Position numbers and translations under genes: made by a program | The notes under the pieces: model-generated | The model's input: only the letters and a program-made list of their open reading frames with translations | The model's database searches: none | What the model was told of the DNA's origin: nothing | Shown here: positions 2-52,331 of the stretch, piece after piece | How positions within the stretch are numbered: position 1 is the stretch's first letter | Layout: the number at the start of each line of letters is the position of its first letter | Virus record (IMG/VR): IMGVR_UViG_3300027770_000032 | DNA: 64,000 bases | Strand: one strand, 5' to 3' | Source: a virus

Positions 2-2596
2 ACTGTAGGTTCTAGCTTCATTGCCAACACGAGCAAAGTGGCTATCGGTACGGCAGTCGGACTTGAAGCGAACGGTGGTATCGGTACTGCCGGTCAAGTA
101 TTACACTCAAATGGTACTTCGATATACTGGGCAGTTGATGACAATGCCGGAGGAACAGTCACATCTGTCGCAACTGCCAACGGTCTTTCTGGTGGTCCAA
201 TTACATCAACTGGTACACTCGGTGTAACGACCGGTTCGACACTTACGGTGAATACTGCCGGCATTCATGTGAACTCAGCCTTATCAATCACATCTCTTAC
301 GTTAGCAGGTGCAGCTTCTGGTGTTACGACACTTGCTGCCGGTAATACAACAATTACAGGTTTTGCAAACGTAACAGGTAACGTACAAATAAGCGCGATC
401 AATGCAACCTCATTTGGCGCTACGCTTACTTCAAATTCAACGACCGCTATTTTAACTCTTGGCAACTCTTCTGTTACCGCAACAATGAATAGTTCAACCT
501 TTAGTGGCACTGCAAACAACTCTACGAATCTTGACGGGTCTTCATTAGCTACAGTACAAGGTCAAATTACTGGTAACGCTACTACTGCATATACAAACTC
601 AGTATCCTACACTGACACAAAGATCGGTACAGCGAATACTGCGATGGTTGCAAATGCCGGTGCAGCATATACCAATGCGACTATTTTTGCTGCCAATGCT
701 TCGAATGCAAACAATGGCACATTAGCTTTTGCTCGATTACCTTCATTGTTTGTTGGAACGACTACGATTCAGTCAACAAGTGCTGCACAAGCCGTAACAG
801 GTATTACGACGCTTGCCGCAGGTAACACGACGATTACTGGTGATATTACCGTTTCTGGTAACCTTACTATCAATGGTACTACAACCAATATAAATTCTAC
901 AAATCTTGTTGTAGAAGATAAAAACATTGTGCTTGCTGACGTAACTACTCCGACCGATGTGACTGCCGACGGTGGTGGTATTACTCTGAAAGGTGCCACC
1001 GATAAGACATTTAACTGGGTTGATGCAACTGACAGCTGGACTTCTTCTGAACATATCGATCTTGCGGCCGGTAAAGTCTATAAGATCGGTACTACTACTA
1101 TTGCTAACTCTACAGCTTTAGGTACTGGAATTCTTGCATCGTCTCTTACCTCTGTAGGCACTTTAAGTTCTCTTACGCTCGGTGGCGCAGTATCAGGCGT
1201 CACAACACTCGCTGCCGGTAATACTACTATTACTGGCTTTGCGAATGCTTCAGTTTCGGTCAACTCAGCATTGTTAACTGTGGGTACAGCCTTTGTTGCT
1301 AATACGATTGGAGCTTTTCACACTGGTACTGTTAACGCTGCATCATTTACAACCACTGGTTTAACAATTAATACTACTGCTATTGTTCCTACATCAAACT
1401 CATCAGGGCAGACATTAGGTAATACCACTTCTAGGTTTGTTTTGTCCGCCAACTCAATTGACACAACAGGCGCAATTAACATCGCCGCCGGGCAAGTGTT
1501 AAAATTCAATAATGATGTTGGTATTTCTCGCTCGCAAGCTGCAGTATTGTCTATCGGCAACGGAACTCAAAATGATTCTACTGGAACAATAAGTCTTACT
1601 GGTGGTTTATTTCAAGGCGCAGTCAATGCAGCTTCACATACTGTCGGTTCTAGCTTCATTGCCAACTCAACGGGCATTACATCAACTGGCTTTGCAAACG
1701 TATCGACTACATTACAAGTGGGAACGAATACAGCCACCTTTGGTACCGCTGTTTATATTATAGCAAGTGGTAACACCGGTGTTGGTACAAGTTCTCCGGC
1801 ATCACTGTTTCATGTCAAACGCGGCAGCAATGCTACCGAAAACTACCCTACTAATACTTGGGCGGCGCGCATTATCAATGCCACCGATGCCAATACTGAA
1901 AATGGCCTTGTTGTCGGCAATCGCTGGGCTGCGGTTGAGTCAACAATTTTTGAAGCCGGGTCGATTTATGGCGGAGGCTCTGCTTGGGCATCTTATTATA
2001 AAGTCACAGGCATTGGAACGCACACTTGGGGCACGGGCTCAACTGGCACTGAAGCTATGCGTATCGATACTAACGGTAACACTGGTATTGGTAACACCGC
2101 ACCGGCCCATAAATTATCGATAGGTGGCACGCTCGCAGCCGGTAACACTACGATCACGGGTTTTGCTAACGTATCGACCACTTTACAAGTAGGAGGCATT
2201 TCTACTCTTGCCGCAAACTTAGTAATGGCCAACAATTTTATTACTCGCCCAGTGTTAGCAGGTTACTCTGAACACGAAGTGTCAAACACGGCAGTTACTG
2301 GTACATTTACACTAGACTTTTCGACTGCAAACTTCTTCGATCTAATACTTACTGGAAACACGACAATCTCACCATCTGGAATTCCAGCGAATACAAGAAT
2401 GGTTTCTGCTACACTTGCAGTCAAACAAGATGCGACCGGAGGAAGAACCATTACATGGCCGACAGGTACTAAATACGCGGGTGCTGTCTCGCCTCCTGCG
2501 ACAACGACTGCAAATGCTGTCGATATCTGGTCGATTATGACGTACGATGCGGGCAATACTTACATTGTTTCATTGTCAGTAAAGAATGCGAGCTAA
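2..2596 (+). CDS. Long tail fibre protein, 5'-truncated by window edge
   Basis: Frame is open from base 2 (TVGSSFIANTSKVAIG...). T/G/A/N/S-rich with repeated TLAAGNTTITGFANV units and myovirus fibre motifs (VEDKNIVL...ADGGGITLKG.TDKTFNW, MRIDTNGNTGIG). C-terminal QDATGGRTITWP domain. Confidence 0.8.
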   Translation, partial: TVGSSFIANTSKVAIGTAVGLEANGGIGTAGQVLHSNGTSIYWAVDDNAGGTVTSVATANGLSGGPITSTGTLGVTTGSTLTVNTAGIHVNSALSITSLTLAGAASGVTTLAAGNTTITGFANVTGNVQISAINATSFGATLTSNSTTAILTLGNSSVTATMNSSTFSGTANNSTNLDGSSLATVQGQITGNATTAYTNSVSYTDTKIGTANTAMVANAGAAYTNATIFAANASNANNGTLAFARLPSLFVGTTTIQSTSAAQAVTGITTLAAGNTTITGDITVSGNLTINGTTTNINSTNLVVEDKNIVLADVTTPTDVTADGGGITLKGATDKTFNWVDATDSWTSSEHIDLAAGKVYKIGTTTIANSTALGTGILASSLTSVGTLSSLTLGGAVSGVTTLAAGNTTITGFANASVSVNSALLTVGTAFVANTIGAFHTGTVNAASFTTTGLTINTTAIVPTSNSSGQTLGNTTSRFVLSANSIDTTGAINIAAGQVLKFNNDVGISRSQAAVLSIGNGTQNDSTGTISLTGGLFQGAVNAASHTVGSSFIANSTGITSTGFANVSTTLQVGTNTATFGTAVYIIASGNTGVGTSSPASLFHVKRGSNATENYPTNTWAARIINATDANTENGLVVGNRWAAVESTIFEAGSIYGGGSAWASYYKVTGIGTHTWGTGSTGTEAMRIDTNGNTGIGNTAPAHKLSIGGTLAAGNTTITGFANVSTTLQVGGISTLAANLVMANNFITRPVLAGYSEHEVSNTAVTGTFTLDFSTANFFDLILTGNTTISPSGIPANTRMVSATLAVKQDATGGRTITWPTGTKYAGAVSPPATTTANAVDIWSIMTYDAGNTYIVSLSVKNAS

Positions 2597-2599
2597 GAT

Positions 2600-3922
2600 A
2601 TGGGTATTGGTGGAGGTTCTAAATTTACACTCGAAAAAACTTGGCGCGCAAGTGGTGTCGGCACGACTACGTTTAATGCACCAGGCAATATCGCAATCCC
2701 TTACGGTAGAAATGTAATCAACGTTGCTGGTGCAGGTGGCACCGGAACAGCAGCCATTTCTGGTAACTTAAACTATAATCCACTTGTACCAGGAACATTA
2801 AACTATAATCCACTTGTTCCAGGAACATTAAACTACAATCCACTCGTTCCTGGTACTCTTAACTATAACCCACTCGTTCCTGGTAACTTGAACTATAATC
2901 CACTTGTTCCTGGAACATTAAACTATAATCCTCTAGTTCCAGGCAATCTGAACTATAATCCGCTTGTTCCCGGAAACCTAAACTATAATCCACTTGTTCC
3001 TGGAACTGCCAACTATAATGCTGTCGTTCCGGGCACTTCTAACTATAATGCTGTCGTTCCGGGCACTTCTAACTATAATGCTGTCGTTCCAGGCAATTCT
3101 AACTTTAACCCAATTGTTCCAGGAACTGCGAGCACATATAATCCAGAGAGCGCAGGAACAGCGAGCTCATATAATGCTCCAAGCCCAGGAACAATTGCTG
3201 GATATACTCCCTATAAAGCCAAAGCGGGTACCGGAGGCAATCCGTTCTATAATGCTCCAACTGCTGGTAATCTGAATTATAACTCTCCTTCTCCAGGTAC
3301 AGTTGCAAGTTATAATTCTCCTTCAGGCGGCACATTTGCTGGTACTAATCCATCAAGTGGAGGTACATTTGCTGGTACTAATCCATCAAGTGGAGGTACA
3401 TTTGCTGGTACTAATCCATCAAGCGGCGGTACTTTATCTTCATACAATGCTCCAACTGGCCAAACATCGACCGGAACATATAATGCTCCAACTGGAAAAA
3501 CATCGACCGGAACATATAATGCTCCAACTGGTCAAACATCAACAGCAACATACAATGCTCCAACTGGCCAAACATCGACCGGAACATATAATGCTCCAAC
3601 TGGAAAAACATCAACAGGCACTTATAATGCACCAACGGGTCAAACCTCAACAGGCACTTATAATGCACCAACGGGTCAAACCTCGACCGGAACATATAAC
3701 GCTCCGACTGGACAAACGTCGTCAACATATAATCCAAATACTCCGGCAGTTGCCGGTACCTCATCATCAGCGCTCGGCGTGACAGCTCCCGGATCGGCGA
3801 CCGGAGGAACTCCAGCAACACCGGTAGGTCAAACACTTGTTAGCTATTATACATATCCAGATAACGCAACATATCCTGTGACAGTGGCTCCTGGGGGTAA
3901 TATAACTATAGTAGTATCGTAA
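2600..3922 (+). CDS. Gly/Pro/Thr-rich repeat protein, probable fibre-tip adhesin
   Basis: Directly follows the fibre gene. A Gly-rich domain (TTFNAPGNIAIPYG...VAGAGG / YPVTVAPGG) is split by ~330 aa of tandem repeats. Confidence 0.65.
   Translation: MGIGGGSKFTLEKTWRASGVGTTTFNAPGNIAIPYGRNVINVAGAGGTGTAAISGNLNYNPLVPGTLNYNPLVPGTLNYNPLVPGTLNYNPLVPGNLNYNPLVPGTLNYNPLVPGNLNYNPLVPGNLNYNPLVPGTANYNAVVPGTSNYNAVVPGTSNYNAVVPGNSNFNPIVPGTASTYNPESAGTASSYNAPSPGTIAGYTPYKAKAGTGGNPFYNAPTAGNLNYNSPSPGTVASYNSPSGGTFAGTNPSSGGTFAGTNPSSGGTFAGTNPSSGGTLSSYNAPTGQTSTGTYNAPTGKTSTGTYNAPTGQTSTATYNAPTGQTSTGTYNAPTGKTSTGTYNAPTGQTSTGTYNAPTGQTSTGTYNAPTGQTSSTYNPNTPAVAGTSSSALGVTAPGSATGGTPATPVGQTLVSYYTYPDNATYPVTVAPGGNITIVVS
2762..3745 (+). 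repeat. Coding tandem repeats: 30-nt (GxLNYNPLVP), 33-nt (GTFAGTNPSSG) and 36-nt (QTSTGTYNAPTG) units
   Basis: Directly visible. In-frame units with synonymous third-position variation. Confidence 0.95.
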
Positions 3923-3946: not shown

Positions 3947-4537
3947 ATGACTTTTGACTTTCAAAAATATAATGCGCCGTTGGAGTGTTTTGCTATATGG
4001 GAAGGTGGATTTACACCTGAAGAAGTAGACAAAATCCTTTATATGGAATCTCTCCAAAACTTTGGAAAAGGTACAGTAGGATCCGAGAATGCAGTTGCTA
4101 AAAAAGAAGTCAGAGACTCTGAAATAGCATGGATTCACCCCGATCAACATTCCCATTGGTTATTTGAACGACTTGCTGCAATCACATCAACCATAAATCA
4201 TCAACAATTTATGTATGATATTAAAGGTGTTGAACTTCTTCAATACACAAAATACAATATTAACCAACACTACACTTGGCACTGGGATGTTGAGTTTGGT
4301 TGGCAAAACTTTCAGCGTAAAATCTCTGCCACGATGATGCTCTCTGATCCTGATGAGTATGAAGGTGGTGAACTCGAGGTTTGCAATAATGGCAATTTTG
4401 AAGATACTAAAGTAGTGAAACCTAAAAAAGGTGATATTGTTTTCTTTGCATCTTGGATGCCGCATCGAGTAAAACCAGTTATTTCTGGTGAAAGAAAATC
4501 ATTGGTAATGTGGGTAATGGGAAAAAGGCAATCGTAA
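3947..4537 (+). CDS. 2OG-Fe(II) oxygenase, PKHD/prolyl-4-hydroxylase-like
   Basis: YTWHWD (HxD), YEGGEL, PHRVKPV (distal H), RKSLVMW (RxS). Confidence 0.9.
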   Translation: MTFDFQKYNAPLECFAIWEGGFTPEEVDKILYMESLQNFGKGTVGSENAVAKKEVRDSEIAWIHPDQHSHWLFERLAAITSTINHQQFMYDIKGVELLQYTKYNINQHYTWHWDVEFGWQNFQRKISATMMLSDPDEYEGGELEVCNNGNFEDTKVVKPKKGDIVFFASWMPHRVKPVISGERKSLVMWVMGKRQS

Positions 4538-5253
4538 TGTTTAACTTCTTTAAAAAACCGGTGATGGAATTCTATTGCCATCCAGAACAACATGGTGTTA
4601 TTCCTGAACCAAAACCGGCTGCAAAGTATATAGCAGATTGGTTTAAAAAAATTCCTGTCGATCTTGATGAAAGAGACACGTTTGGTGCTCGATCAATGTC
4701 TGCAAAGAAATGTATGCCAATGCTAGATGCAATGACATTAGGATACGTGATTCCTTTACAAGCAGATCTACATCTCATTTCTAATCACGATCGCACTCAT
4801 ATTGAGGTGACAAATCCTCCTGGTACAAAGATTTGTGAGTTTCATAATATCAAGCAAGTTGGTGAAAAGACTGCGCCCGGATTTCCGGCAGCTCCAATAA
4901 AGTTCATCAACTATTGGGTGATTAAAACAAAGCCCGGTTATTCTACGATGATCATGCCATTAGTTAATAATTTTGATAATGACTTTACGTGTTTGTCAGG
5001 TCTTGTCGACACTGATAGATATCCTAAAGAAATCAATTTTCCTGCAATCTGGCACACTCCTAACTTTGATGATATTATTCCAGCAGGAACTCCACTTGTT
5101 GTAGTGTTTCCTATTAAAAGAAGCGATATTCCATCTAAACCAATCGTCAGAGAAATGACCACTAAAGAATTTAAACACATTGATAATATCAAAAAAGCAC
5201 AAGACAGTCGTCGTCATGTCTATACACAAGAATTGAGGGAACCTAGAAAATGA
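4537..5253 (+). CDS. Conserved hypothetical protein of phage oxygenase clusters (DUF6065-like)
   Basis: KKCMPMLDAMTLGYVIP, W.IKT.PGYS, G.VDTD.Y, IPAGTPLV motifs. ATG overlaps the previous stop. Confidence 0.55.
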   Translation: MFNFFKKPVMEFYCHPEQHGVIPEPKPAAKYIADWFKKIPVDLDERDTFGARSMSAKKCMPMLDAMTLGYVIPLQADLHLISNHDRTHIEVTNPPGTKICEFHNIKQVGEKTAPGFPAAPIKFINYWVIKTKPGYSTMIMPLVNNFDNDFTCLSGLVDTDRYPKEINFPAIWHTPNFDDIIPAGTPLVVVFPIKRSDIPSKPIVREMTTKEFKHIDNIKKAQDSRRHVYTQELREPRK

Positions 5254-5969
5254 TTTTCAATTTTCTTAAAAAGAAAAAAGATCTTGAATTTGTAGATACC
5301 AGTAGAACTGCTTATCAGACATATCCTGTTGTAAGAGCGGCTGATATCAAACCGCGCACATTTGAATATCAAAAAAACAAATACAAAAAGCATATGTTGC
5401 CTCACTGCCCCGGTATGATTCAATATGCTGAGATGGGATATATTATTCCTGCATGGATTGATATTCACATTAGAGCGAATAAAGCAGGTGTTGCTCACTA
5501 TATTGGATCTGACGAACGCGGAACCCGCGGATATTTGCCAGGTAGAGTAATGGGTGCAGACGTAATCGATGGGATCTTTGAACCAGAAGATGGTGTTCCG
5601 TTGACTCCTCTTAATTTTGGAGCACCTTGGGCTATTTTTGGTCGTGGTAATATTACAGCCTTGTTATTACCTGCGATTTATCATTCAGACTTCTTAGACG
5701 ATTTGATGGTATTACCTGGATCTGTTGATTATGAAAAGTTTCATACTGCCAATTTTATCTGTGCTCCAAAGCGTGAGTGCGAGGTACATATCAAAGCTGG
5801 AGATCCTTTGTTGCATGTGATCCCGTTCTGGAATAAAGAATTTAATGCTGGATTTGGGCCTGGATCACAAGATCAAGTAGACAAATGGAATAATGAAATT
5901 CCCGGTGATGATAAACAATATTATCGTAGGTTTCAAATGTTAAAGAAAGTGTTTAGGTTGTCAAAATGA
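5250..5969 (+). CDS. Paralogue of the preceding hypothetical protein (DUF6065-like)
   Basis: CPGM...GYIIPAW, PGSVD, IKAGDPLLHVIPF align with the upstream gene. Confidence 0.55.
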   Translation: MIFNFLKKKKDLEFVDTSRTAYQTYPVVRAADIKPRTFEYQKNKYKKHMLPHCPGMIQYAEMGYIIPAWIDIHIRANKAGVAHYIGSDERGTRGYLPGRVMGADVIDGIFEPEDGVPLTPLNFGAPWAIFGRGNITALLLPAIYHSDFLDDLMVLPGSVDYEKFHTANFICAPKRECEVHIKAGDPLLHVIPFWNKEFNAGFGPGSQDQVDKWNNEIPGDDKQYYRRFQMLKKVFRLSK

Positions 5970-7036
5970 AAATATTTGTATCAATCTGTTCTTATAGAGA
6001 TCCACTTTTACATTATACTCTTGAGAGTTTAATTGAAAACAAATCAAATAGACACGAAGCAACTTACTCGATCTTAGAACAGATCGTATACAAAGACTCG
6101 CTTGAGAAGTTATATCCAGAACTTGTGGCAAGACCGGATGTTGTTTATAAAAGAGTCGAACCACAATATTCAGACGGGGTAGGTTGGGCGAGAAAGGTTA
6201 ACTCACTGAATGTAAGAGATGAGGATTTCTTTTATCAAATCGACAGTCATATGGTGTTCGATGAAAACTGGGATCGATATCTTGTAGAAGACTATAAGCG
6301 TGGTGTCAAGAAATCTGGTAGTAAGAAAGTTATTATTGACGGTGGAACTAAAACTTATACGTTAACTGAAAAGTTTGAACCGTATAAACATATAGAAGCT
6401 TACGGAATTACCACACATGCAAAATATTTTATGTGGGACAGAAATTCTATATTAGCAGTACATGGACATCATGTTCCTCCTACACCAGATGTGATGCCTA
6501 CAGCACATCTTTTTGCCGGCAATCTTTTTACTCATGTCGAATGGCTTCAAAATGTAGGAATCAATCATCTTTCGTTTTTTGATGCTGAAGAACAGCTTCT
6601 TACTATGACATCATTTGAAGCCGGTTACTATATGTACGCGCCGACTGAAGTTAAAGTATATCATTTCGCCGGATCCGGAGAGTATACTACTAAACAGTGG
6701 TATAAACCTATTATTAGTATGGATAAATACTCAGAATGCGTAAAAATATCTGTTAAACAGTGGACAGATTATCTTGAATATGTTCAAGAATCCGTTCTCA
6801 TAGATTACTACAAATATTCTGGCGTAGATTACATTAATCAAAAGATCGAAGATCGCGGTCGAGACTATCCTGCATTAGTCAGTAAAATGAATTATCCTTT
6901 GATACCAGGCGAAACTCACGTCGTTATTAATAAAGAAATTGAAGAAGACACTAAATCTAATATAATTGTTAATGAAGAAATTCAAGATGATAAAGGTGAA
7001 ATAACAAATGACAGTGCCGAATCTCAAACGGAATAG
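5966..7036 (+). CDS. Glycosyltransferase, GT60 / Skp1 hydroxyproline GlcNAc-transferase (Gnt1)-like
   Basis: IFVSICSYRDP, GVGWAR, QIDSHMVF..NWD (DxH), EE..L and YH motifs are typical of the GlcNAc/GT60 family. Confidence 0.8.
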   Translation: MKIFVSICSYRDPLLHYTLESLIENKSNRHEATYSILEQIVYKDSLEKLYPELVARPDVVYKRVEPQYSDGVGWARKVNSLNVRDEDFFYQIDSHMVFDENWDRYLVEDYKRGVKKSGSKKVIIDGGTKTYTLTEKFEPYKHIEAYGITTHAKYFMWDRNSILAVHGHHVPPTPDVMPTAHLFAGNLFTHVEWLQNVGINHLSFFDAEEQLLTMTSFEAGYYMYAPTEVKVYHFAGSGEYTTKQWYKPIISMDKYSECVKISVKQWTDYLEYVQESVLIDYYKYSGVDYINQKIEDRGRDYPALVSKMNYPLIPGETHVVINKEIEEDTKSNIIVNEEIQDDKGEITNDSAESQTE

Positions 7037-7469
7037 AGAATGTGGAGATTGTAAAGAATGCTGTACGGGCACTTTATATGCTGATATTTACGGAAAAATT
7101 ATGGATAAGGGAAGACCGTGTCACTACTTAGGTGGAGAGGGTTGCACTATTTATGAAAAAAGGCCAGGTGTTTGTAAAGCATATGCATGTGAATGGCTAA
7201 GAGATGATTCGACACTTATTCCAGAATGGATGAGACCGGATTTATCAAAAGTTATTATTACGCAAAAAGGCTGGGGTGATAATCTTCAACACAATTATTG
7301 GAATATCGCAGAAAGCCATCAGAAGATTGATTCTGTAATCTTAAATTGGGTCTATATGTATACGTCTTCTCATAATATATGTGCTAACATTGAAGTTGAC
7401 GGAAGATGGTATCAAATGGGCCCTCCCGAATTTGTAGAATATATGCAGAGAAGTGTTTCGGCGACTTAA
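7008..7469 (+). CDS. YkgJ/FliB-like cysteine-cluster (Fe-S/Zn) protein
   Basis: CGDCKECC...CHYL...GCTIYEKRPGVCKAYAC. Confidence 0.8.
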   Translation: MTVPNLKRNRECGDCKECCTGTLYADIYGKIMDKGRPCHYLGGEGCTIYEKRPGVCKAYACEWLRDDSTLIPEWMRPDLSKVIITQKGWGDNLQHNYWNIAESHQKIDSVILNWVYMYTSSHNICANIEVDGRWYQMGPPEFVEYMQRSVSAT

Positions 7470-7473
7470 ATCT

Positions 7474-8067
7474 ATGTTATACGAAGAAATAAAACTTAAA
7501 AATCCTGGGGTATTAAAAACAAAACTACCTAATGATATATTCAGGCAGATAAAAGCTGATGCACTTGCAGATGCTGAAAAAAAGATCCCATATAATGAAC
7601 ATTTAGTAGGTCAAATTGCTGGTGAATATCAAATCAAAGTAAATCCATATTTTGAAAAAATTATTAATAATATGTGGATTGAATATAGAGAAAGATTTGA
7701 CTATCATCTTTCAAACCAATATTATATTTCTGATACAGCATGGATAAATGTCCAGAAAAAACATGAATTCAATCCCGTGCATCATCATGAAGGTGCAGCA
7801 TCTTGGGTTATATGGTTACAGATCCCGTATGATTTAGAGGAAGAATTGAACACTTTTAAAAATGCAAAAAGTCGTGATACTTCTTTATTTTATTTTTATT
7901 ATAATTCGTTTATAGGAACACAAGAAAATTCCCCGCTGTATATTGATAAACAATGGGAAGGAACTATGATTATGTTTCCGGCGATGCTGAAGCATAGCGT
8001 ATATCCATTTTATACTACAGACTCTCCAAGAATTTCAATATCTGGGAACATTGAAGTCCATGCATGA
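7474..8067 (+). CDS. 2OG-Fe(II) oxygenase (TIGR02466-like)
   Basis: WIN.QKKHEFNPVHHH, FPAMLKHSVYPF, RISISGN. Start could be GTG 7453. Confidence 0.85.
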   Translation: MLYEEIKLKNPGVLKTKLPNDIFRQIKADALADAEKKIPYNEHLVGQIAGEYQIKVNPYFEKIINNMWIEYRERFDYHLSNQYYISDTAWINVQKKHEFNPVHHHEGAASWVIWLQIPYDLEEELNTFKNAKSRDTSLFYFYYNSFIGTQENSPLYIDKQWEGTMIMFPAMLKHSVYPFYTTDSPRISISGNIEVHA

Positions 8068-8890
8068 TATTCAATTTTGGAAAGAATTATGTCCAAATCT
8101 TACGATTGCAGAAATAGATCGTTGGGCAACACCGTCAGAAATTGCTATAGAAGATGTCAAAGATAAAATAGTTAACGACGGATATTTCCATATACCATTT
8201 GACTCATGGAATCTGCCTTTCGATGAAATGACTCGATGCATTGAAAAGTTAAAAGATCTTGATATGCAACCAGTATGGTGTTTTATATACGACGAGTTTT
8301 GGTTATTGACGGTCAAGATCGATGCACACATCAAATCTATTCTTGGTGAAAATTATTATCGGCTTCCTGAAGTGTGGGCATGGCATATCGATCCATCGAA
8401 AGAAGAAAGAGGCTGGAAGATACATCGAGAAGGCGGATATTATAGTACATTTGATGACGGTCTTCCAAAAACTTTAACTATCTGGATTCCTTTAACAGAT
8501 GCAACTTCAGAGAATGGTTGCATGTGTGTCGTGCCAATAGCAAACGATCCTAACTTTTATAATACAGACGAATCGTATTATGCAAATTGGCAAGAAGATT
8601 TTTATGATAATAGTAAAAAAATACTTGAAGCCAAATCAGGAGATGTGCTTGGATGGCATCCGCAGATATTACATTGGGGGAAAAAATCTACTAATAAAAA
8701 TGCAAATCCGCGAATATCAATATCCATGGAGTTTGTTTCGAATCGTATATTAGAACTAAATGATACTGCGTGTTTTTATGACAAAGAAGAACATCCATGG
8801 TTAGATCCATTTTATATTCCAGATCTGACTAAAAAGACAGAACTCATAAATAAGCTAGTATCACGATATCAACATATGTGGGAAAAGTAA
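8060..8890 (+). CDS. PhyH-family 2OG-Fe(II) dioxygenase
   Basis: WKIHRE, TIWIPLTDATSENGCM.VVP, GDVL...LHWG, PRISIS. Confidence 0.8.
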   Translation: MHDIQFWKELCPNLTIAEIDRWATPSEIAIEDVKDKIVNDGYFHIPFDSWNLPFDEMTRCIEKLKDLDMQPVWCFIYDEFWLLTVKIDAHIKSILGENYYRLPEVWAWHIDPSKEERGWKIHREGGYYSTFDDGLPKTLTIWIPLTDATSENGCMCVVPIANDPNFYNTDESYYANWQEDFYDNSKKILEAKSGDVLGWHPQILHWGKKSTNKNANPRISISMEFVSNRILELNDTACFYDKEEHPWLDPFYIPDLTKKTELINKLVSRYQHMWEK

Positions 8891-9499
8891 ATGCCTGAAC
8901 TAACCAAATACGAAAAATTAGTAAGACTTCAGCCGGTCGATTTTGTGCCTGAGATACAATTGTATCTATGTGATACAGCACATCACATCGTATATCCCGA
9001 TAGATATCCTTGTTGGGCATACGCATGGGTAGGCGGAAAGGCACTTGCCAGATATATTCTTGATAATCCGCAATTAGTTCAAGGCAAAACAATCATTGAC
9101 ATGGCAGCTGGATCTGGAATTGCAGCCATCGCAGCTAAAATGGCTGGCGCTGCAAGAGTAATAGCAGTCGATGACTATACACCGAGTATAGAAATCATGC
9201 AACTCAATGCTGAAGCGAATGGCGTTGAAATAGAATTGGTTCAACAAAGCGTTTTTGACTATCAACCAAGCCACGCCTATGACTTATTCATAATGGGCGA
9301 TCCATTCTATAACGATGATCTCTTCTCGTATGTTGAAAATAATTTCAAACCAGTACTTGTCGGATGCCCGGTAAGATCTCATACTTTGTATTATAATTTT
9401 TATGTAAAAAATCCAATACACACATATACTATTGAATCACCTCCAGGCTACGACGACTATCTCGAATTTGACACACACATTTGGTGGTTAAGTGCCTAA
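8891..9499 (+). CDS. SAM-dependent protein (lysine) methyltransferase, ETFbeta-KMT/PrmA-like
   Basis: WAYAWVGGKALARYILDNP, IIDMAAGSGIAAIAA motif I, LNAEANGV. Confidence 0.8.
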   Translation: MPELTKYEKLVRLQPVDFVPEIQLYLCDTAHHIVYPDRYPCWAYAWVGGKALARYILDNPQLVQGKTIIDMAAGSGIAAIAAKMAGAARVIAVDDYTPSIEIMQLNAEANGVEIELVQQSVFDYQPSHAYDLFIMGDPFYNDDLFSYVENNFKPVLVGCPVRSHTLYYNFYVKNPIHTYTIESPPGYDDYLEFDTHIWWLSA

Positions 9500-10250
9500 A
9501 TTTACGTGTTTATTAACACCAGGAAGATCGGGCTCTACGTTTTTATACACTGCATTTAATCAAATTCCAAATACTATTGCACATGAATCATACTATGTGT
9601 GTACTGATAATATCGAGCAGTGTTTTTCTTCTATTTACGGAAAATCGTTGGCAGAAAAAAACAGATTCATAAAGTCTAAGATCGAATATATCGAAAACTT
9701 AGACTGTGAATACTATGTTGATACTGTATCTCTTATATGCCAAGATAATAACTTAGAGTTGTTTATCGATAACGGTTATAAACCAAATGTCATTACGCTT
9801 CGCCGTGATCCAAGAGATGTTGCCTTAAGCTGGTATAGTTTTGGTTGGGATCCGACTAAGTCGCCTTTAACATCTGTCAATCCAAATGACAAAGATGCCA
9901 TCAAAATCACATTACAGGATCCACATGATTATCAATATTGTTTATGGTATTGCTTTGAGATTGAAAGACTGTGTAGACAATATAAAACAAAACTTGAATC
10001 TTGGGGCGTCAAACATTATGAAACATCCTTGTCTCATATAATAGACAAAGACAAGTTTAATTTGATGTTAGATTTTTTTGAAATGCCTAACATATCAGAG
10101 ATATGTCAAGGTAAAATAAATGAACTGAATGAATTTAAGGTCAGATCATTAGAAAATCATCTAATTCCTGAGTTGCAACAGCAGTTTCTAGAAAACATTA
10201 GAGACAATAATGACATAGAGTTTTTTGATATGGATCAGTGGAACTATTAG
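9492..10250 (+). CDS. Sulfotransferase-like protein
   Basis: PGRSGST (5'-PSB loop) and LRRDPRDVALSW (3'-PB). Confidence 0.65.
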   Translation: MPKFTCLLTPGRSGSTFLYTAFNQIPNTIAHESYYVCTDNIEQCFSSIYGKSLAEKNRFIKSKIEYIENLDCEYYVDTVSLICQDNNLELFIDNGYKPNVITLRRDPRDVALSWYSFGWDPTKSPLTSVNPNDKDAIKITLQDPHDYQYCLWYCFEIERLCRQYKTKLESWGVKHYETSLSHIIDKDKFNLMLDFFEMPNISEICQGKINELNEFKVRSLENHLIPELQQQFLENIRDNNDIEFFDMDQWNY

Positions 10251-10849
10251 TCTCTATAAACAGGAAGTGGAAAACCATATTGTGCTACATTTCCTGGTGA
10301 AACATAATGTAAAAAGGCTTGTGTGATAGATTTTTGTTCTACCTTTGGTCGATAATGCCATCTTCCGTCAAATTCGGTTGTGCCATAAAACATAATAGCA
10401 TCTCCTTCTTCCATAAAGACTTCTACAGGATTTGATCCGTGTTCGTCATCACAGAAACATAAAGACGTTGGCTGATCGCCGTCTTTGTCAATTAGTATAG
10501 TAGCTGAGAATTCACAGACAGAACGATCTCGATGGATCTTGAGTTCAGAATCGGTATAATATTGCCTAAAAAATACATAAGAAGGAATCAATTCAGTATT
10601 AAAGATGTCTTGCACTTTATTCTTATATGCGAGCAGCATACTATCAGCAAAGATAGTAGGTTGATAGTGATCGACATTGCCAATGAGATAAGGATTTGCT
10701 TCTACAGTCTTAATATTCGAAGCCTGTGAAACATCCATAAAAGACTTACAAATCTGAATTACTTCTGCAGATAAAAAGTTCTTGATGAGAACATATCCAT
10801 GTTTTTTAAGATGTTTTCTAGCGTTTTTCATTATATGCCTTTCATCCAC
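10247..10849 (-). CDS. 2OG-Fe(II) oxygenase
   Basis: R.Y...L.IHRDRSVCEFS, GDA.MFYG, WHYR, QAFLHYV. Confidence 0.8.
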   Translation of the reverse strand: MDERHIMKNARKHLKKHGYVLIKNFLSAEVIQICKSFMDVSQASNIKTVEANPYLIGNVDHYQPTIFADSMLLAYKNKVQDIFNTELIPSYVFFRQYYTDSELKIHRDRSVCEFSATILIDKDGDQPTSLCFCDDEHGSNPVEVFMEEGDAIMFYGTTEFDGRWHYRPKVEQKSITQAFLHYVSPGNVAQYGFPLPVYRD

Positions 10850-11592
10850 TTTGTTCCATGCTTCGAGCTGTACTTTGTTTCAGGATCGTATGCTGCAAAA
10901 TCTTCGTAGCGAGGATCTCCTGGCTCAGCTCGCTTGCCGATGCTATACTCGCCGATATGATTGACGATGTTATTTCCTTCTTCGGTCTTGAGCTTACATG
11001 TTTGCATGCCAAGTTGTTGCAACGATTTCGCGACGACATACTCACTTAAGTTCTTCTCGCCTACTGATTCGGTATGAGGAAGATCTACTATGGCACGCGG
11101 AAAAACACTTGCCAAACTCCAAAAATATGCTTCAGAAAGTTCTCCTCGATATTTTCCGAGTGTAATGTCTGTTTCATAAGCCTGAGTTTCCTCTTCAAAA
11201 TCATACCATTTTTGTCTTGTCAAACATACTTGAGAAACGTTACGATAATCATGTAAGATCTGAGTCATGTCGAGCATTCGAATCGGACAGTTGAACGTCA
11301 CATCATCTTCTGATAGATACACGTAGTCATAATCTCGTTCTCTCAGCAGTTCGAAGGTTCGATTCCATACGTATGGCAAACCCATATTCTGTTGATGTAA
11401 GAAGATCTCGGTAAAACCAAAACTTTTGGCTAACTCGAACATCGTACCATCGTGGCGACCTTTTGGCATATCATCGATAAAGATGCCTTCGACTTCACAA
11501 CCTTCAAAGTCTAACATATCACGCTGAGATTTGAGTGTAGGAATTAAATACTCGAGTCGATTCGTCGACCATATTACTTTACAAACTTTCAT
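10831..11592 (-). CDS. Glycosyltransferase, GT-A (GT2-like)
   Basis: IFIDD, N.GL, YVYLSEDD, HIG motifs. Confidence 0.65.
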   Translation of the reverse strand: MKVCKVIWSTNRLEYLIPTLKSQRDMLDFEGCEVEGIFIDDMPKGRHDGTMFELAKSFGFTEIFLHQQNMGLPYVWNRTFELLRERDYDYVYLSEDDVTFNCPIRMLDMTQILHDYRNVSQVCLTRQKWYDFEEETQAYETDITLGKYRGELSEAYFWSLASVFPRAIVDLPHTESVGEKNLSEYVVAKSLQQLGMQTCKLKTEEGNNIVNHIGEYSIGKRAEPGDPRYEDFAAYDPETKYSSKHGTKWMKGI

Positions 11593-12140
11593 CTCACTTG
11601 CTCCGTGTCAAAAAAGAATGTCTGAAAAAGACGTCCATCATATAAATCTTTCCCAAAGTAATCTAAGCTAGCATGGAAAAGGTCACCGCTATAAAGAATC
11701 AATCGATTGTATTTGTTGCCTACAACATCGATTCGATCCCACTTGGTATAGTCATATGCTTCGTGCTCGTTTGTTGGAGCCCGATATTCGCCTGTTTCTT
11801 TGTGCCGATACATGGCAGTGCCAGCGGTATATGGAGCATCTGGTGACAAGTAGCATACACCAGCCCACATGCTTGTATGATCGCAATGAATCCACGTTCG
11901 ATCTAAAGCGGTAGCGTATTGAAAGGCACCAGTATAACCGGAATCTTCGTGCCAATTGGAAATCTTTCCGACTGGATTCATCCAATGCTGAATGCAATCT
12001 TTGACATCTTGTGTCAAGAATGAAGGTGTTCGTTTTCCTGGATAGTTACCTATGACGCCAAAGTCTTGAGTTAAAGCAAAGGCTCTGACCGCGTCTGGAT
12101 TGATATAGAAGTTATCAATAATCATCAAGTCTAAATTCAT
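11589..12140 (-). CDS. 2OG-Fe(II) oxygenase-like protein (DUF6445-like)
   Basis: IIDNFY.NPD.VR, YPGKR, WIHCD, YNRLILY...FH, RLFQTFF. Confidence 0.7.
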   Translation of the reverse strand: MNLDLMIIDNFYINPDAVRAFALTQDFGVIGNYPGKRTPSFLTQDVKDCIQHWMNPVGKISNWHEDSGYTGAFQYATALDRTWIHCDHTSMWAGVCYLSPDAPYTAGTAMYRHKETGEYRAPTNEHEAYDYTKWDRIDVVGNKYNRLILYSGDLFHASLDYFGKDLYDGRLFQTFFFDTEQVR

Positions 12141-16697: not shown

Positions 16698-19310
16698 ATG
16701 GCGTTTCAAGTCAGCCCAGGAATCAATGTTTCCGAAATTGATCTTACAACTACTGTTCCAGCACTTGCGACTACGGTCGGCGGTTTTGGCGGAGTATTTC
16801 GTTGGGGACCAGTCGGAAAGTTCGTTCTTGTAGATTCAGAAAATACACTCGCAAATCGCTTCGGTAAACCGACCTCGGACAACTACGAAACGTTTTATAC
16901 AGCCGCAAATTTCCTTTCTTATGGAAATGCTTTGTATGTTTCGCGGGCCGCCAATACAACAGGTTTTTCTAATACAGCGACTGTTACGCTTAGTAGTAAT
17001 ACTACGCTTGCCACGGCGAACGGCGCGGCTCTTGGCCTTACAGTTGGTAATCGCGTGCAAGGCGATGGCATTCCCGATGATACCTTCGTTACAGCGGTTT
17101 CCAATACCACTACTACTATTTCGAGAGCCGCGACAGCAAATGCTTCAGCTCTAATTTCATTCTTTGCGAATGCTACTACTCTCTCTGCTTATGCTGGTGA
17201 TACAGCTGCAGTCGTTGCATCAAACGTAGTTGTTAGAAACTCAGAAGAATTTGAAAACAAAGGCGCAGCGAATACAACTTTCGCTGGAACAGAGTTTGTA
17301 GCTCGTTATCCGGGTGCACTCGGTAACTCTCTCAAAGTTTCAATGTGCGACAGTGATAGACAATACGCTGAAACCATCACGTTTGAAACTAATACTTCAT
17401 GGGGTTCAACCACTGCAAATGCATATGCTCTTGCTGATCTTACATCGGCAACAATAGCTATCGATGTTGGTAGCAATACTGCTAACGTAGTATTCGTATG
17501 GTCTAACGACGATTTCGCAGATCGTGTAGCCGCTTCTGCAACAGCACGCGCAGTTGGATCGAACGGTGTATCAGCTAACTTTATCTCTCTTGCTACCGCA
17601 AATACACTCTTTACGAACGGTGACGCAGTATGGTATGCAAAGGGAGCTTCTTCGACTGCGAATAGCATTCAAGGTTTATCAGAAGGTACATCGTACTACA
17701 TTACTGGAGCGAATACAAGTGGCTTTACTCTCTCGCTAACATCTGGCGGAGCAAACGTTGCCATCTCGAATGGCGCAGCCAACTCGGTTGTTTATTTTAC
17801 AAAACAAACAGCGACTGGTCTCGGTCTTACTCTTGCACAAGCACGTCTGGCTGTCACAGCGCTTAAAGATAAGATCACTGTCGGCGATTATATCGAAGTT
17901 GGTAATACTTCTATCGGTAAGCAGAACATGAAGGTTGTCTCAGAGGGCGCGCAAGCCGATGACGGTACAAACATTTACTTCAACATCGTTTTCGATTCAA
18001 CTTGGAACAAGTCGACTAACTTTAGTGCTACTTCACTGAAGCGTCAATGGGAATACTTCAACACTGTAGATTCTGCTCCAGGCGTATCTCAAGCGATGAC
18101 AAACGCCGGACTTTCTACGAAAGACGAAGTTTCAGTTGTTGTGGTTGACGAAGATGGTCTAATCAGCGGAACACCTGGTCAAGTGCTTGAAATCTACCAA
18201 AACCTTTCGCGTGCAACAGATGCTAAGAAAGAAGATGGTACAACTAACTACTACAAGACGGCGATCAACGACTTCTCACGTTGGATTTGGGCTACAAACG
18301 ATCGCTCTGGCGCTGCTTCGAATACTCTCTCAACCGTTGCTAACTCGACCAATACGACGACTTATACAAAGTCATTCGTTCGCGGAACAGACGGTGCGAC
18401 AGAAAGTACAGTATCAATGGCAGCCGTTGGTGCTGCATACGATCTCTTCGCAGATGCAAGTACAGTCGATGTTTCTTTGATTCTTCAAGGGAAAGCAATC
18501 GGAACGAACGACGTTCAGTTAGCTAACTATCTGATCGACAACATTGCAGAAGTTCGTAAGGATTGCGTAGTATTCGTTTCGCCAGCCTACTCTGATGTTG
18601 TAGGTATCACTACAGAAAATGCACAAGCGCAGAACATCGTAGATTTCAGAAATCTTCTGCGTAATACCTCATATGCATTCCTCGATTCTGGTTACAAATA
18701 TCAGTACGACAAGTATGCAGATATCTATCGCTACATTCCATTGAACGGCGATATTGCTGGTATTACTGCTCGCAGCGATAGCCTAAAAGATCCTTGGTTC
18801 TCTCCTGCTGGATTTACTCGCGGTCAAATTAAAAACCTCGTCAAGCTGGCGTTTAGCCCTGGAAAAACTGAAAGAGATCTTCTGTATAAGAATGATGTCA
18901 ATCCAATCGTGACATTCCCGGGTCAAGGCACAGTACTCTACGGAGATAAGACTCTCCTCGGTCGTGCAAGTGCATTCGATCGTATTAACGTACGTCGCTT
19001 GTTTATTGTTCTTGAAAAGGCGATTGCAACAGCTTCAAACTCTACGCTGTTTGAATTCAACGACGATTTCACAAGATCACAGTTTGTGAATCTGGTTGAG
19101 CCATATCTTCGCGACGTTCAAGGTCGTCGTGGAATCTTTGACTTCCGCGTGGTTTGTGACGAGACGAATAACACTGCTGAAGTAATTGACAGCAATCGCT
19201 TTGTTGGAGACATCTACATTAAGCCTGCTAAGTCGATCAACTTCATTCAGCTAAACTTCGTCGCCGTCAGATCTGGTGTCGAGTTCAACGAAATCGCTGG
19301 CCAGTTCTAA
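16698..19310 (+). CDS. gp18: Tail sheath protein with inserted domains (870 aa)
   Basis: SPG.NVSEIDLT, FRWGP, PWFSPAG..RG, FDRINVRRLF, FEFND. Confidence 0.97.
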   Translation: MAFQVSPGINVSEIDLTTTVPALATTVGGFGGVFRWGPVGKFVLVDSENTLANRFGKPTSDNYETFYTAANFLSYGNALYVSRAANTTGFSNTATVTLSSNTTLATANGAALGLTVGNRVQGDGIPDDTFVTAVSNTTTTISRAATANASALISFFANATTLSAYAGDTAAVVASNVVVRNSEEFENKGAANTTFAGTEFVARYPGALGNSLKVSMCDSDRQYAETITFETNTSWGSTTANAYALADLTSATIAIDVGSNTANVVFVWSNDDFADRVAASATARAVGSNGVSANFISLATANTLFTNGDAVWYAKGASSTANSIQGLSEGTSYYITGANTSGFTLSLTSGGANVAISNGAANSVVYFTKQTATGLGLTLAQARLAVTALKDKITVGDYIEVGNTSIGKQNMKVVSEGAQADDGTNIYFNIVFDSTWNKSTNFSATSLKRQWEYFNTVDSAPGVSQAMTNAGLSTKDEVSVVVVDEDGLISGTPGQVLEIYQNLSRATDAKKEDGTTNYYKTAINDFSRWIWATNDRSGAASNTLSTVANSTNTTTYTKSFVRGTDGATESTVSMAAVGAAYDLFADASTVDVSLILQGKAIGTNDVQLANYLIDNIAEVRKDCVVFVSPAYSDVVGITTENAQAQNIVDFRNLLRNTSYAFLDSGYKYQYDKYADIYRYIPLNGDIAGITARSDSLKDPWFSPAGFTRGQIKNLVKLAFSPGKTERDLLYKNDVNPIVTFPGQGTVLYGDKTLLGRASAFDRINVRRLFIVLEKAIATASNSTLFEFNDDFTRSQFVNLVEPYLRDVQGRRGIFDFRVVCDETNNTAEVIDSNRFVGDIYIKPAKSINFIQLNFVAVRSGVEFNEIAGQF

Positions 19311-25298: not shown

Positions 25299-26657
25299 AT
25301 GTTAGCTGAGGAACTAAATAACAAGTGGAAGCCAGTGCTCGAGCACACGGATCTTCCAGAAATTACAGATGCTCATAAGCGCCTTGTCACAGCGACAGTG
25401 CTTGAGAACACAGAGCGCGCGCTTCGCGAAGCTGGTGGTGGACAGCAAATGCTTGGTGAAGGCGATGGTCACATCAACTCTGCAGGCAGCGGCGCTGTTG
25501 CAAACTTCGATCCAGTATTGATTTCACTCGTACGTCGTTCGATGCCAAATCTGATTGCTTATGACGTTTGCGGCGTTCAGCCAATGAACGGTCCAACCGG
25601 CCTTATCTTCGCAATGCGTTCGCAGTATGCTAACTCGACAGATGCGAACACGGCAGAAGCATTCTACAACGAAGCAAACACAGGTCACGCTTCGCGTCTC
25701 GGCGCTGGTTTGACAGCTGCTAACACCGGTGCTGCTACAGCAACTACTGTTGGTGCTAACACTGTTGGTACATCACCTGATTCGTCAAACAACGCTGGCA
25801 ACTCGTTCTACAACTACACAATGGGTCTTCTCGTTGGTTCGGCTGAATTGCTCGGCGCGAACAGCACATACATCTTCCCGGAAATGGGCTTCTCGATCGA
25901 GAAGGTGACTGTATCTGCAAAGACACGTGCTCTGAAGGCTGAATACACGCTTGAACTCGCACAAGATCTGAAAGCGATTCATGGTCTTGACGCAGAATCA
26001 GAACTTTCGAACATTCTTTCGGGCGAAATCCTTGCAGAAATCAACCGTGAAGTTGTTCGCTCTATCATCATCACTGCTGAAAAAGGTGCAACCGATGGTA
26101 CCACAACTGCTGGTATCTTCGATCTCGACACCGATTCAAACGGTCGTTGGTCAGTTGAAAAGTTCAAAGGCCTTCTGTTCCAGATCGAACGTGAATGCAA
26201 CCAGATCGCGAAGCAAACACGTCGCGGTAAAGGTAACGTAATCATCTGCTCTTCGGACGTTGCTTCGGCACTTCAGATGGCAGGCGTTCTTGATTACGCT
26301 CCTGCGATGAATACCTCTTCGTTGAATATCGACGATACAGGCAACACATTTGCTGGTGTTATCAATGGTCGCATTAAGGTCTATATTGATCCATATGCTG
26401 GTACAAACTTCTTGGTCGTAGGCTATAAGGGTTCGAATCCATTCGACGCTGGCCTCTTCTATTGCCCATACGTTCCACTTCAGATGGTTCGTGCGGTTGA
26501 TCCAGGTTCGTTCCAGCCGAAGATTGGCTTCAAGACACGCTACGGCATGGCACCGAATCCATTCGCGAAGGGTACAACTGCTGCTTCTGCAACAGCTGTT
26601 CTTGAGCAGGATTCGAACAAGTACTATCGTCGCGTTCTTGTTAACAACTTGATGTAA
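25299..26657 (+). CDS. gp23: Major capsid protein
   Basis: DPVLISLVRR.MPNLIAYD.CGVQPM.GPTGLIFAMR, ELAQDLKAIHGLDAE, FQPKIGFKTRYG. Confidence 0.98.
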   Translation: MLAEELNNKWKPVLEHTDLPEITDAHKRLVTATVLENTERALREAGGGQQMLGEGDGHINSAGSGAVANFDPVLISLVRRSMPNLIAYDVCGVQPMNGPTGLIFAMRSQYANSTDANTAEAFYNEANTGHASRLGAGLTAANTGAATATTVGANTVGTSPDSSNNAGNSFYNYTMGLLVGSAELLGANSTYIFPEMGFSIEKVTVSAKTRALKAEYTLELAQDLKAIHGLDAESELSNILSGEILAEINREVVRSIIITAEKGATDGTTTAGIFDLDTDSNGRWSVEKFKGLLFQIERECNQIAKQTRRGKGNVIICSSDVASALQMAGVLDYAPAMNTSSLNIDDTGNTFAGVINGRIKVYIDPYAGTNFLVVGYKGSNPFDAGLFYCPYVPLQMVRAVDPGSFQPKIGFKTRYGMAPNPFAKGTTAASATAVLEQDSNKYYRRVLVNNLM

Positions 26658-34759: not shown

Positions 34760-35047
34760 ATGACTAAGTTTGTGAAGAGCAATTTTGAATACCATGGCGG
34801 ATACCTCCATTACAATACCGCCGCCGGCGAACGTAAGTTTGTCGCCCGCTTTAAGCGTGGCCCAATTACCAAAGCCAAGTTTCAAGCCGCGCTGATCAAG
34901 TATTACGATGTAGATGCCTACTTCGCCCGTCTCGTTGGACCTTACAACGCATATGGTCATACTCCTTTTGGAATGATGATGTATGACGGCATTCTTTGCC
35001 GCCATTACAAAACTCACGAGCTCATCCTTGACGGAAAGGCACTCTAA
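34760..35047 (+). CDS. Hypothetical early protein
   Basis: ORF behind promoter and RBS. Confidence 0.65.
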   Translation: MTKFVKSNFEYHGGYLHYNTAAGERKFVARFKRGPITKAKFQAALIKYYDVDAYFARLVGPYNAYGHTPFGMMMYDGILCRHYKTHELILDGKAL

Positions 35048-35325
35048 TGGATAAGTATGACATCCTTCGCTCTCTTTTGAGTTTACCTCTTTTTAAGGCC
35101 CGTGACTTTGCTATAGCAATTCTTCGTGAAATCCCTGTACCTCCGATGACTAATAGCAGTATACCAGCTATGAGAAAGCGTGCTAGTGTGAATAAACTCA
35201 TTCGTGACATTGAAAATGCAAACTCACCGTTTTCTATTAGTCAGACTATGTGGAATCTTGATCAAGCCAAAGCGGGTTTGAATGTAGCAAACTCCGCGTG
35301 GGACAAACATTACAAAAGTATTTAA
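35047..35325 (+). CDS. Hypothetical protein
   Basis: Coupled TAATG start. Confidence 0.6.
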   Translation: MDKYDILRSLLSLPLFKARDFAIAILREIPVPPMTNSSIPAMRKRASVNKLIRDIENANSPFSISQTMWNLDQAKAGLNVANSAWDKHYKSI

Positions 35326-51506: not shown

Positions 51507-52331
51507 ATGAAAAAGCTTTTATTACTTCCATTACTTCTTATCACAACGGCTTGTGCTGGAGGAGTGCATCCTCATCTCAATCAATCATATCTCGCAAGAG
51601 AAGATGCTGAAGTAGAAAGATTTGCAAATCCTAAGTTGTTTAGAACTCTACCAGAACTTGATGGTCAGGTAATTCCGATTGCCATCTACTCGTTCACTGA
51701 TAGAACAGGACAACGCAAACCTTCTGCTACTCAAGCCAGCTTCTCGACAGCCGTCACTCAAGGTGCAGATGCTTATGTTATTAAAACATTGGCAGATACT
51801 GGTGGAGGAAAATGGTTTCGACCAGTCGAGCGCGTAGGCATTGATTCGCTTATTAAAGAACGTCAACTCGTAAGACAGATGAGAGAGCAACAACTCGGAG
51901 AAGGTGCTGAACCACTTCCTCCTTTGATGGTTGCAGGTATCATCCTTGAAGGCGGTATTATTGACTATAGTTCAAATACCAAAACTGGTGGTAACGGTGC
52001 AAGATTCCTCGGAATCGGTCCTTATCAACAATATTCAGAAGATCAAGTTACTATTAGTATGCGACTCGTTTCGGTTCAGACAGGTGAAGTTTTAACTTCT
52101 GTCACCGTTGAGAAGAATCTACTCTCTACTTCCGAGGGAGTGACAGCATTTAAGTTTTTTGATGTGGGAACAAAAGCTTTTGAATTTGATGGACAACAAA
52201 CATCAAATGAAGCTGGTAGTTATGCAATCCGTTCAGCCATAGAAACGGCAGTTGTGGAATTAATCAAGGATGGTGAACGCAAAGGACTATGGAGATTTAA
52301 GCAAAAGGAATCAACAAATGAAGGTAATTAA
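51507..52331 (+). CDS. csgG: Curli secretion channel lipoprotein CsgG
   Basis: Lipobox TAC; Y.F.D.TGQRKP, FSTAVTQGA, WF.PVER.G...L.KERQ..R, EGGII.Y. Confidence 0.93.
   Translation: MKKLLLLPLLLITTACAGGVHPHLNQSYLAREDAEVERFANPKLFRTLPELDGQVIPIAIYSFTDRTGQRKPSATQASFSTAVTQGADAYVIKTLADTGGGKWFRPVERVGIDSLIKERQLVRQMREQQLGEGAEPLPPLMVAGIILEGGIIDYSSNTKTGGNGARFLGIGPYQQYSEDQVTISMRLVSVQTGEVLTSVTVEKNLLSTSEGVTAFKFFDVGTKAFEFDGQQTSNEAGSYAIRSAIETAVVELIKDGERKGLWRFKQKESTNEGN

Follow-up and report, generated by a model that had tools for sequence, protein, structure and literature searches.

An asparagine-neighbour bias in exposed modules of the sheath, capsid and tail fibre of a T4-like phage

The 64,000-nucleotide stretch of viral DNA analysed here (IMG/VR record IMGVR_UViG_3300027770_000032, hereafter the window) comes from a metagenome-derived T4-like myophage, and its tail sheath protein gp18 carries a large insert in which asparagine (Asn) is mostly preceded by alanine (Ala) or serine (Ser). 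The tripeptide to which this preference extends, [A/S]-N-[S/T], with Ser or threonine (Thr) after the Asn, is also in excess in the capsid protein gp23 and in a tail-fibre-like protein. An initial annotation of the window had proposed a virion-wide target motif for Asn-linked glycosylation or hydroxylation, shared by unrelated structural proteins and plausibly written by enzymes encoded in the same stretch. Our analysis allowed us to take these claims apart. The bias is real, Asn-specific and limited to the exposed modules of three proteins, and it is a lineage trait of one T4-like branch. The features that bear on it directly are listed below, with residues numbered in amino acids (aa).

2..2596, plus strand: tail-fibre-like protein, 5′ end open; AN 22 against 10.4 expected, [AS]N[ST] 11 against 5.1
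2600-3922, plus strand: fibre-tip protein with two runs of short repeats
16698..19310, plus strand: gp18 tail sheath, 870 aa (PHROG 23, E 3e-113)
16935..17808, plus strand: gp18 insert region, aa 80-371, the carrier of the bias
16956..17177, plus strand: first inserted module of gp18, aa 87-160, a small beta domain akin to the decoration protein of Arthrobacter phage Bridgette
17493..17813, plus strand: second inserted module of gp18, aa 266-372, a small beta-barrel confined to the closer relatives of the window
25623..25886, plus strand: variable surface segment of gp23, aa 109-196, to which the six [AS]N[ST] of the capsid protein are confined

Asparagine neighbours in the proteins of the window

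Between residues 80 and 371, gp18 has 27 Asn, of which 13 follow Ala and 8 follow Ser, exactly as the initial annotation had counted. The local composition (51 Ala and 33 Ser in 292 residues) predicts 7.8 such cases, and none of 200,000 plain shuffles of the insert reached 21 (maximum 18; binomial p = 1.9e-7). The enrichment therefore persists under shuffling at fixed composition, the check that had been named for it. In a dipeptide scan, AN is the most over-represented of all 400 dipeptides in the insert (z 4.4). The residue after Asn is biased as well, with Ser or Thr following in 13 cases against 7.0 expected, and complete [AS]N[ST] tripeptides number 10 against 2.0. The further suggestion that many sites fit the N-x-S/T sequon does not hold up, as 8 of the 27 Asn of the insert do so against 6.9 expected (p 0.39), and 4 in gp23 against 4.7. 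The fibre is the only one of the three with an N-x-S/T excess (34 against 21.6), which we attribute, from a reading of its sequence, to its repeat modules.

Several possible sources of the bias were ruled out. Shuffles within secondary-structure classes gave a mean of 8.3 and shuffles within strand-relative position classes a mean of 8.6, which excludes loop-versus-strand composition and strand-relative position as causes (about 8.5 against the observed 21). Since class-wise shuffles fail to produce the observed number, the coupling must be local to the dipeptide. Before Asn, Ala is encoded by each of its four codons and Ser by each of its six, so that the bias sits at the protein level and a DNA-level cause is excluded. 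Recent internal duplication was likewise ruled out, as BLASTP self-comparison of gp18 returned the identity match only and no internal repeats. Neither composition, nor secondary-structure class, nor DNA-level bias explains the excess in the three proteins.

The excess is sharply partitioned among the proteins of the window. For the tripeptide, whole gp18 holds 13 against 2.8 expected; gp23 holds 6 against 0.86, all of them within aa 109-196, where 0.68 would be expected and none of 20,000 shuffles reached 6. Ser or Thr follows Asn 11 times in gp23 against 4.8 expected, and in the fibre AN is the top-ranked dipeptide (z 4.2). When [AS]N is counted over whole proteins, shuffling, be it free or confined to 30-residue blocks, leaves an excess in gp18 (28 observed, 14.6 expected), the fibre (28 and 19.1) and gp23 (12 and 6.6), with gp19 marginal. 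The open reading frame (ORF) 23142 and gp15 are at chance, the remaining structural proteins pooled yield 26 where 28.1 would be expected, the non-structural proteins yield 89 where the expectation is 104.1, and the fibre-tip protein, with 4 instead of 10.2, is depleted. Beyond gp18, gp23 and the fibre, a tripeptide excess was found in the window only in a 92-aa ORF at 35047-35325 (2 against 0.2, p 0.013).

The motif examples that had been quoted from gp23 (YANS, DANT, EANT, AANT, GANT, GANS), the fibre, the gp15 C-terminus and ORF 23142 are all present, and the DNA polymerase has 2 AN, as stated. The description of the enrichment as virion-wide nevertheless fails, because only gp18, gp23 and the fibre exceed shuffles. 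What survives of the idea of a motif shared by unrelated structural proteins is a position-specific and Asn-specific excess in three exposed proteins. Short modules in about four copies each, namely four GFAN[VA]S and four related copies of [FTI][IV]AN[TS], account for part of the fibre count.

The fibre-tip protein has its own low-complexity character. Its repeats are of an LNYNPLVPGT type and of a YNAPTGQTSTGT type, and most of its Asn residues come after Tyr or Leu, quite the reverse of what gp18 shows.

Sheath modules, relatives and family statistics

The sheath protein consists of T4-like N- and C-terminal parts and the large insert. T4 gp18 in the PDB matches residues 571-868 (E 3.5e-91), while comparison with the PDB found no solved sequence relative of the large insert save for one small module. 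The AlphaFold (AF2) model of gp18 has a mean predicted local distance difference test score (pLDDT) of 87.2 and aligns 512 residues with a Klebsiella phage sheath at a fold Z of 43.2; with its conserved N- and C-terminal sheath domains, the protein belongs to the T4-type tail sheath gp18. Nineteen of the 21 A/S-N sites fall in predicted coil flanking beta-strands, and many of these either sit in short hairpin loops or precede a strand by 1-3 residues. The pLDDT is about 75-95 at all of these sites except N241, which lies in a low-confidence stretch (233-246). As modelled, the sites lie within confidently folded domains, outside disordered linkers.

Two modules within the insert deserve separate description. 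The first (aa 87-160) matches the Bridgette decoration protein (8eci_2) in fold (Z 8.8, root-mean-square deviation 3.2, 73 residues aligned, 37% identity) and in sequence (phmmer E 0.007 over query residues 5-69), a moderate match that places it in the Bridgette-type decoration domain. The two share an [A/S]-S-N-T-T site, SSNTT of gp18 being aligned to ASNTT. The Bridgette protein, however, is a free capsid decoration, whereas the module of the window is an insert in a sheath protein. Only one of the module's six Asn is retained in Bridgette; the other five, four of which follow Ala or Ser, are without counterpart, different residues being aligned there in Bridgette. An actinophage head (Bridgette, PDB 8ECI) and the sheath of a proteobacterial-type phage therefore share a decoration domain. 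In the second module (aa 266-372; AF2 pLDDT 85.9), 9 of 10 Asn follow Ala or Ser. It is present in the window and in three related loci (L036, L028, L030), and absent from relatives aligned at 56-69% gp18 identity. Its best fold matches (Z 6.0-6.5) are small beta-barrels, including phage structural proteins; no assignment was accepted from this search, as such values reflect a common small beta-barrel arrangement.

The closest cultured relatives by DNA are the Sinorhizobium phages phiM12 and phiN3, the Caulobacter phage Cr30 and S-CRM01, with only about 74% identity, inside gp23. In 27 related loci whose gp18 is 56-96% identical to that of the window, the bias is kept throughout, the dipeptide being 1.5-2.8-fold and the tripeptide about 2.6-5.7-fold in excess.

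A broader sample, the variable inserts of 143 diverse gp18 representatives, gives the profile of the preference around Asn. Immediately before it, the ratios are 1.58 for Ala, 1.21 for Ser and 0.72 for Thr; immediately after it, 1.38 for Thr and 1.31 for Ser. Other offsets are near 1, and the conserved gp18 cores show no such neighbour preference. The tripeptide occurs 245 times in these inserts against 112 expected, and 181 times against 85 after conserved anchor sites are masked. The window, at about five-fold, stands at the upper end of a continuum.

In phiM12, the fibre gp097 (L092:886-3591) contains a periodic unit, LTSN[ST]ATITT, in about 8 repeats between residues 140 and 230, with the motif at its core.

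Candidate modifying enzymes and their distribution

The window runs from the fibre and fibre-tip protein through a variable enzyme cassette to gp13 to gp23 and then to replication genes. The genes that could be considered as writers of a modification are the following.

3947..10250, plus strand: variable enzyme cassette with Pfam matches for a prolyl 4-hydroxylase (P4H)-like protein, DUF6065, GT60, Oxy_5, PhyH, a PrmA-like methyltransferase and a sulfotransferase
10831..11592, minus strand: candidate GT2-like glycosyltransferase, a lead from an atlas feature score of 0.98 to GT2 clusters
11589..12140, minus strand: DUF6445 protein adjoining gp13, a candidate 2-oxoglutarate (2OG)-oxygenase-like protein (PF20043, E 1.5e-14; HxD...H pattern)

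The Skp1 hydroxyproline-N-acetylglucosamine (GlcNAc) pathway combines a prolyl 4-hydroxylase with the GT60 enzyme Gnt1, and the window likewise encodes a P4H-like oxygenase (3947-4537; PF13640, E 1e-19) near a GT60 transferase (5966-7036; PF11397, E 1.2e-22). Skp1 chemistry targets proline, however, whereas the motif of the window contains none, and the cassette does not co-vary with the motif, the gp18 bias being unchanged in loci without GT60 or P4H. Among the 27 loci, the bias persists with the P4H/GT60 cassette, with a partial cassette, with an unrelated set of enzymes (L030) and with none of the window's cassette homologues (L068, where the 10 kb upstream hold no homologue of the cassette and the bias is nonetheless present). 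Phages with gp18 82-96% identical to that of the window are equally motif-rich despite widely differing cassette content. One further relative, L012, was dropped as a cassette-free example, as its fibre-like match lies on the other strand and indicates a rearrangement, with no clean absence.

In L030 (1-7744), whose gp18 is about 88% identical, the slot between fibre and neck holds an RCC1-repeat protein, a sulfotransferase, a GT25 transferase, an epimerase, a cupin and an HldE-like kinase/cytidylyltransferase. As this set stands in place of the P4H/GT60 cassette of the window, the slot swaps whole tailoring sets.

The GT2-like and DUF6445 genes form a minus-strand pair, back to back with gp13, that is 75-98% conserved in the clade of the window. 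The GT2-like identity is a lead from a language model only. Relatives such as L062/G002 keep the bias without the GT2-like gene, and a search of cultured phages returned no homologue of the GT2-like protein. DUF6445 has 43 matching records among cultured phages, all of them cyanophages, pelagiphages or marine viruses, so that Cr30, phiM12 and the Stenotrophomonas phage DLP6 are not among them. The pair does not track the motif, and neither glycosyltransferase of the window does. Among the roughly 30 window proteins scanned against Pfam, which was not a full search, no oligosaccharyltransferase or GT41 N-glycosyltransferase was found.

Among complete genomes, three cultured phages offer the sharpest contrast, with [A/S]-N-[S/T] counts given as observed against expected.

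Cr30 (complete genome): gp18 9 against 2.3; no Oxy_3, Oxy_5 or PhyH, one 18-bit GT2 match below cut-off; outside the DUF6445 matches
phiM12 (complete genome): fibre 16 against 4.8, gp18 4 against 0.9; no Oxy_3, Oxy_5, PhyH or GT2; outside the DUF6445 matches
HTVC008M: gp18 1 against 1.4; 9 Oxy_3 (2OG-FeII_Oxy_3) and 14 Oxy_5 matches

A search for PF11397 (GT60) in five cultured genomes gave zero matches, control genomes included, and it therefore makes no statement on absence. The proposal that enzymes of the window write the motif finds no support, given the persistence of the bias in relatives with a different cassette or with no homologue of this one in the 10 kb upstream, and in Cr30 and phiM12. 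The correlation of motif with glycosyltransferase and oxygenase content across related phages, which the initial annotation had suggested as a check, shows no tracking: HTVC008M is rich in oxygenases, and its gp18 is without excess. In the HTVC008M record (L089), four of the 2OG oxygenase genes stand in a row, divergent from gp13, which is the position of the DUF6445 gene in the window. Cyanophages carry many 2OG oxygenases whose substrate is not known (Sullivan et al. 2010, PMC3037559), and our analysis gives no reason to tie them to the motif.

Readings of the motif and a downstream secretion module

The excess of [A/S]-N-[S/T] is probably the sequence vocabulary of uncharged, beta-rich decoration modules on the exposed surfaces of one T4-like branch. 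This branch would comprise the clade of the window, Cr30, phiM12 and, more weakly, DLP6, and the modules would be the two small beta domains in the sheath, the low-complexity surface segment of the capsid protein and the short repeat units of the fibre. Asn would sit in short loops that link or enter beta-strands, with a small residue before it and a hydroxyl residue after it that opens the next strand. The motif would have been inherited and multiplied along with its modules and be read by no enzyme. We infer that the Asn carboxamide carries no addition and may cap main-chain groups where a loop meets a strand. Because the excess does not follow nearby modifying enzymes, a building habit is likelier than a sugar-attachment tag. 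A structural vocabulary is also favoured because the bias is tied to no testable enzyme and because, in the fibre repeats and in the Bridgette-type module, the motif is part of the structural unit. One site, SSNTT against ASNTT in the module homologous to the solved actinophage decoration protein, is kept over a very long distance, and we count it for the structural reading.

Several observations weigh against a purely structural vocabulary. All T4 structural proteins, as well as Ag43, FliC and FliD of E. coli, are without the bias, which is therefore not something that A-, S-, T-, N- and G-rich surface proteins show in general. In 120 relatives (80-97% identical), Asn at the A/S-N sites is conserved to the same degree as the insert average (0.81 for both), with T, D, S, G, A or V as substitutes. 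Nor does the fold require most of these Asn, as the homologous Bridgette module keeps just one of six. The preceding residue is coupled to the Asn, being Ala or Ser in 91% of sequences with Asn and in 67% of those without. Asp, for its part, shows no such preference in the 143 inserts (Ala before it 0.97, Thr after it 0.86), so that a generic Asx turn or cap is no explanation and was ruled out. With Asn mostly dispensable to the fold, not specially conserved and unlike Asp, a modification site keeps a small probability as the explanation.

Such a site would mark the Asn, or the adjacent Ser or Thr, for a modification that coats exposed sheath, capsid and fibre surfaces across the branch, including the cultivable Cr30 and phiM12. 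The modification would be written by an enzyme of the host or by a phage enzyme of some family other than those tested, and single sites would turn over while the total load is kept, as in a glycan shield. Asn and position specificity, confinement to exposed parts of three unrelated proteins and the coupling of the preceding residue to the presence of Asn would all fit, as would the moderate conservation of single sites alongside a number maintained across the clade, and the GT2-like and DUF6445 pair beside gp13 in that clade. There is also a viral precedent. In the chlorovirus PBCV-1, the exposed capsid protein Vp54 is N-glycosylated at NTGT, NTET, NTAT and NIPG, thus outside the N-x-S/T rule and, at the first three, with Thr directly after Asn, a feature shared with sites in the window; its machinery is virus-encoded and the enzyme for the Asn link unknown (PMC9614988). 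The Vp54 glycans are chemically shown, whereas the motif of the window is known from sequence. The chlorovirus-type pattern (N-T-x-T or N-I-P-G) fits only FSNTAT and VSNTTT among the 27 Asn of the gp18 insert, and at gp23 it fits none of the six. The motif is not tracked by any candidate writer, no Asn glycosyltransferase family appeared in the Pfam scan of roughly 30 window proteins, and a literature search for modified Asn or for glycosylation in virions of T4-like phages or cyanophages yielded no relevant report. On balance we regard a recognition site as quite improbable. Freeman et al. reportedly described in 2023 the O-glycosylation of mycobacteriophage virions, with sugars placed on capsid and tail proteins by the phage's own transferases. 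Those O-linked sugars lie on Ser/Thr-rich C-terminal extensions, whereas the window has a dispersed Asn motif in folded domains. The narrower version, in which the oxygenases (P4H-like, Oxy_5, PhyH), GT60, methyltransferase and sulfotransferase at 3947-10250 write the motif, draws on the position of the cassette within the structural region, 6-13 kb upstream of gp18. It is already largely contradicted and hardly credible, given the varied cassettes of motif-rich relatives (a different set in L030, no homologue of the window's set within 10 kb in L068) and the lack of any above-threshold match for the testable enzyme families in Cr30 and phiM12. Moreover, the P4H and GT60 pairing points to a hydroxyproline target, and in the loci its genes are found alongside the fibre-tip protein, which is Pro-rich and poor in [AS]N.

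Without any selection acting on the motif itself, the counts could also be inflated by common descent, through conserved sites and duplicated short modules, together with fine-scale compositional patchiness of low-complexity segments. The recurring modules of the fibre contribute in this way, several gp18 sites (N92, N158, N192, N263) are inherited across the clade, and G-N in the pooled gp18 set is mostly one conserved LGNSL site. Against this, gp18 has no internal repeats by BLAST, the offset profile is sharp at the two positions next to Asn and flat elsewhere, unlike patchiness, and the excess survives the masking of conserved anchors. The six gp23 sites, additionally, are not conserved in Cr30, HTVC008M or T4, and where other sequences have Asn at columns that hold none in the window, Ala still precedes it above composition (21 of 72 against about 17%). 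We consider such inflation an unlikely source of the whole excess.

If the motif is only a building vocabulary, it serves as a warning that phage surfaces may carry strong and significant enrichments of short polar motifs with no enzyme behind them, and that a nearby enzyme cassette is no evidence of a link. If it is a modification site after all, it would be the first dispersed Asn-centred one on a tailed phage, and one that is testable at once, since two cultivable phages with the same bias exist, Cr30 on Caulobacter and phiM12 on Sinorhizobium.

Beyond the structural genes, the window encodes on the plus strand (51507-57688) a curli-like secretion module that includes CsgG (PF03783, E 1e-52), two signal-peptide proteins with curlin-like Asn/Gln/Gly repeats, a FecR-domain protein and a protein with CHASE2 and adenylate/guanylate cyclase domains. 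The N-rich proteins at 52270-55653 were dropped as virion controls, as they are secreted curlin-like proteins beside CsgG; as non-virion controls, they show no bias.

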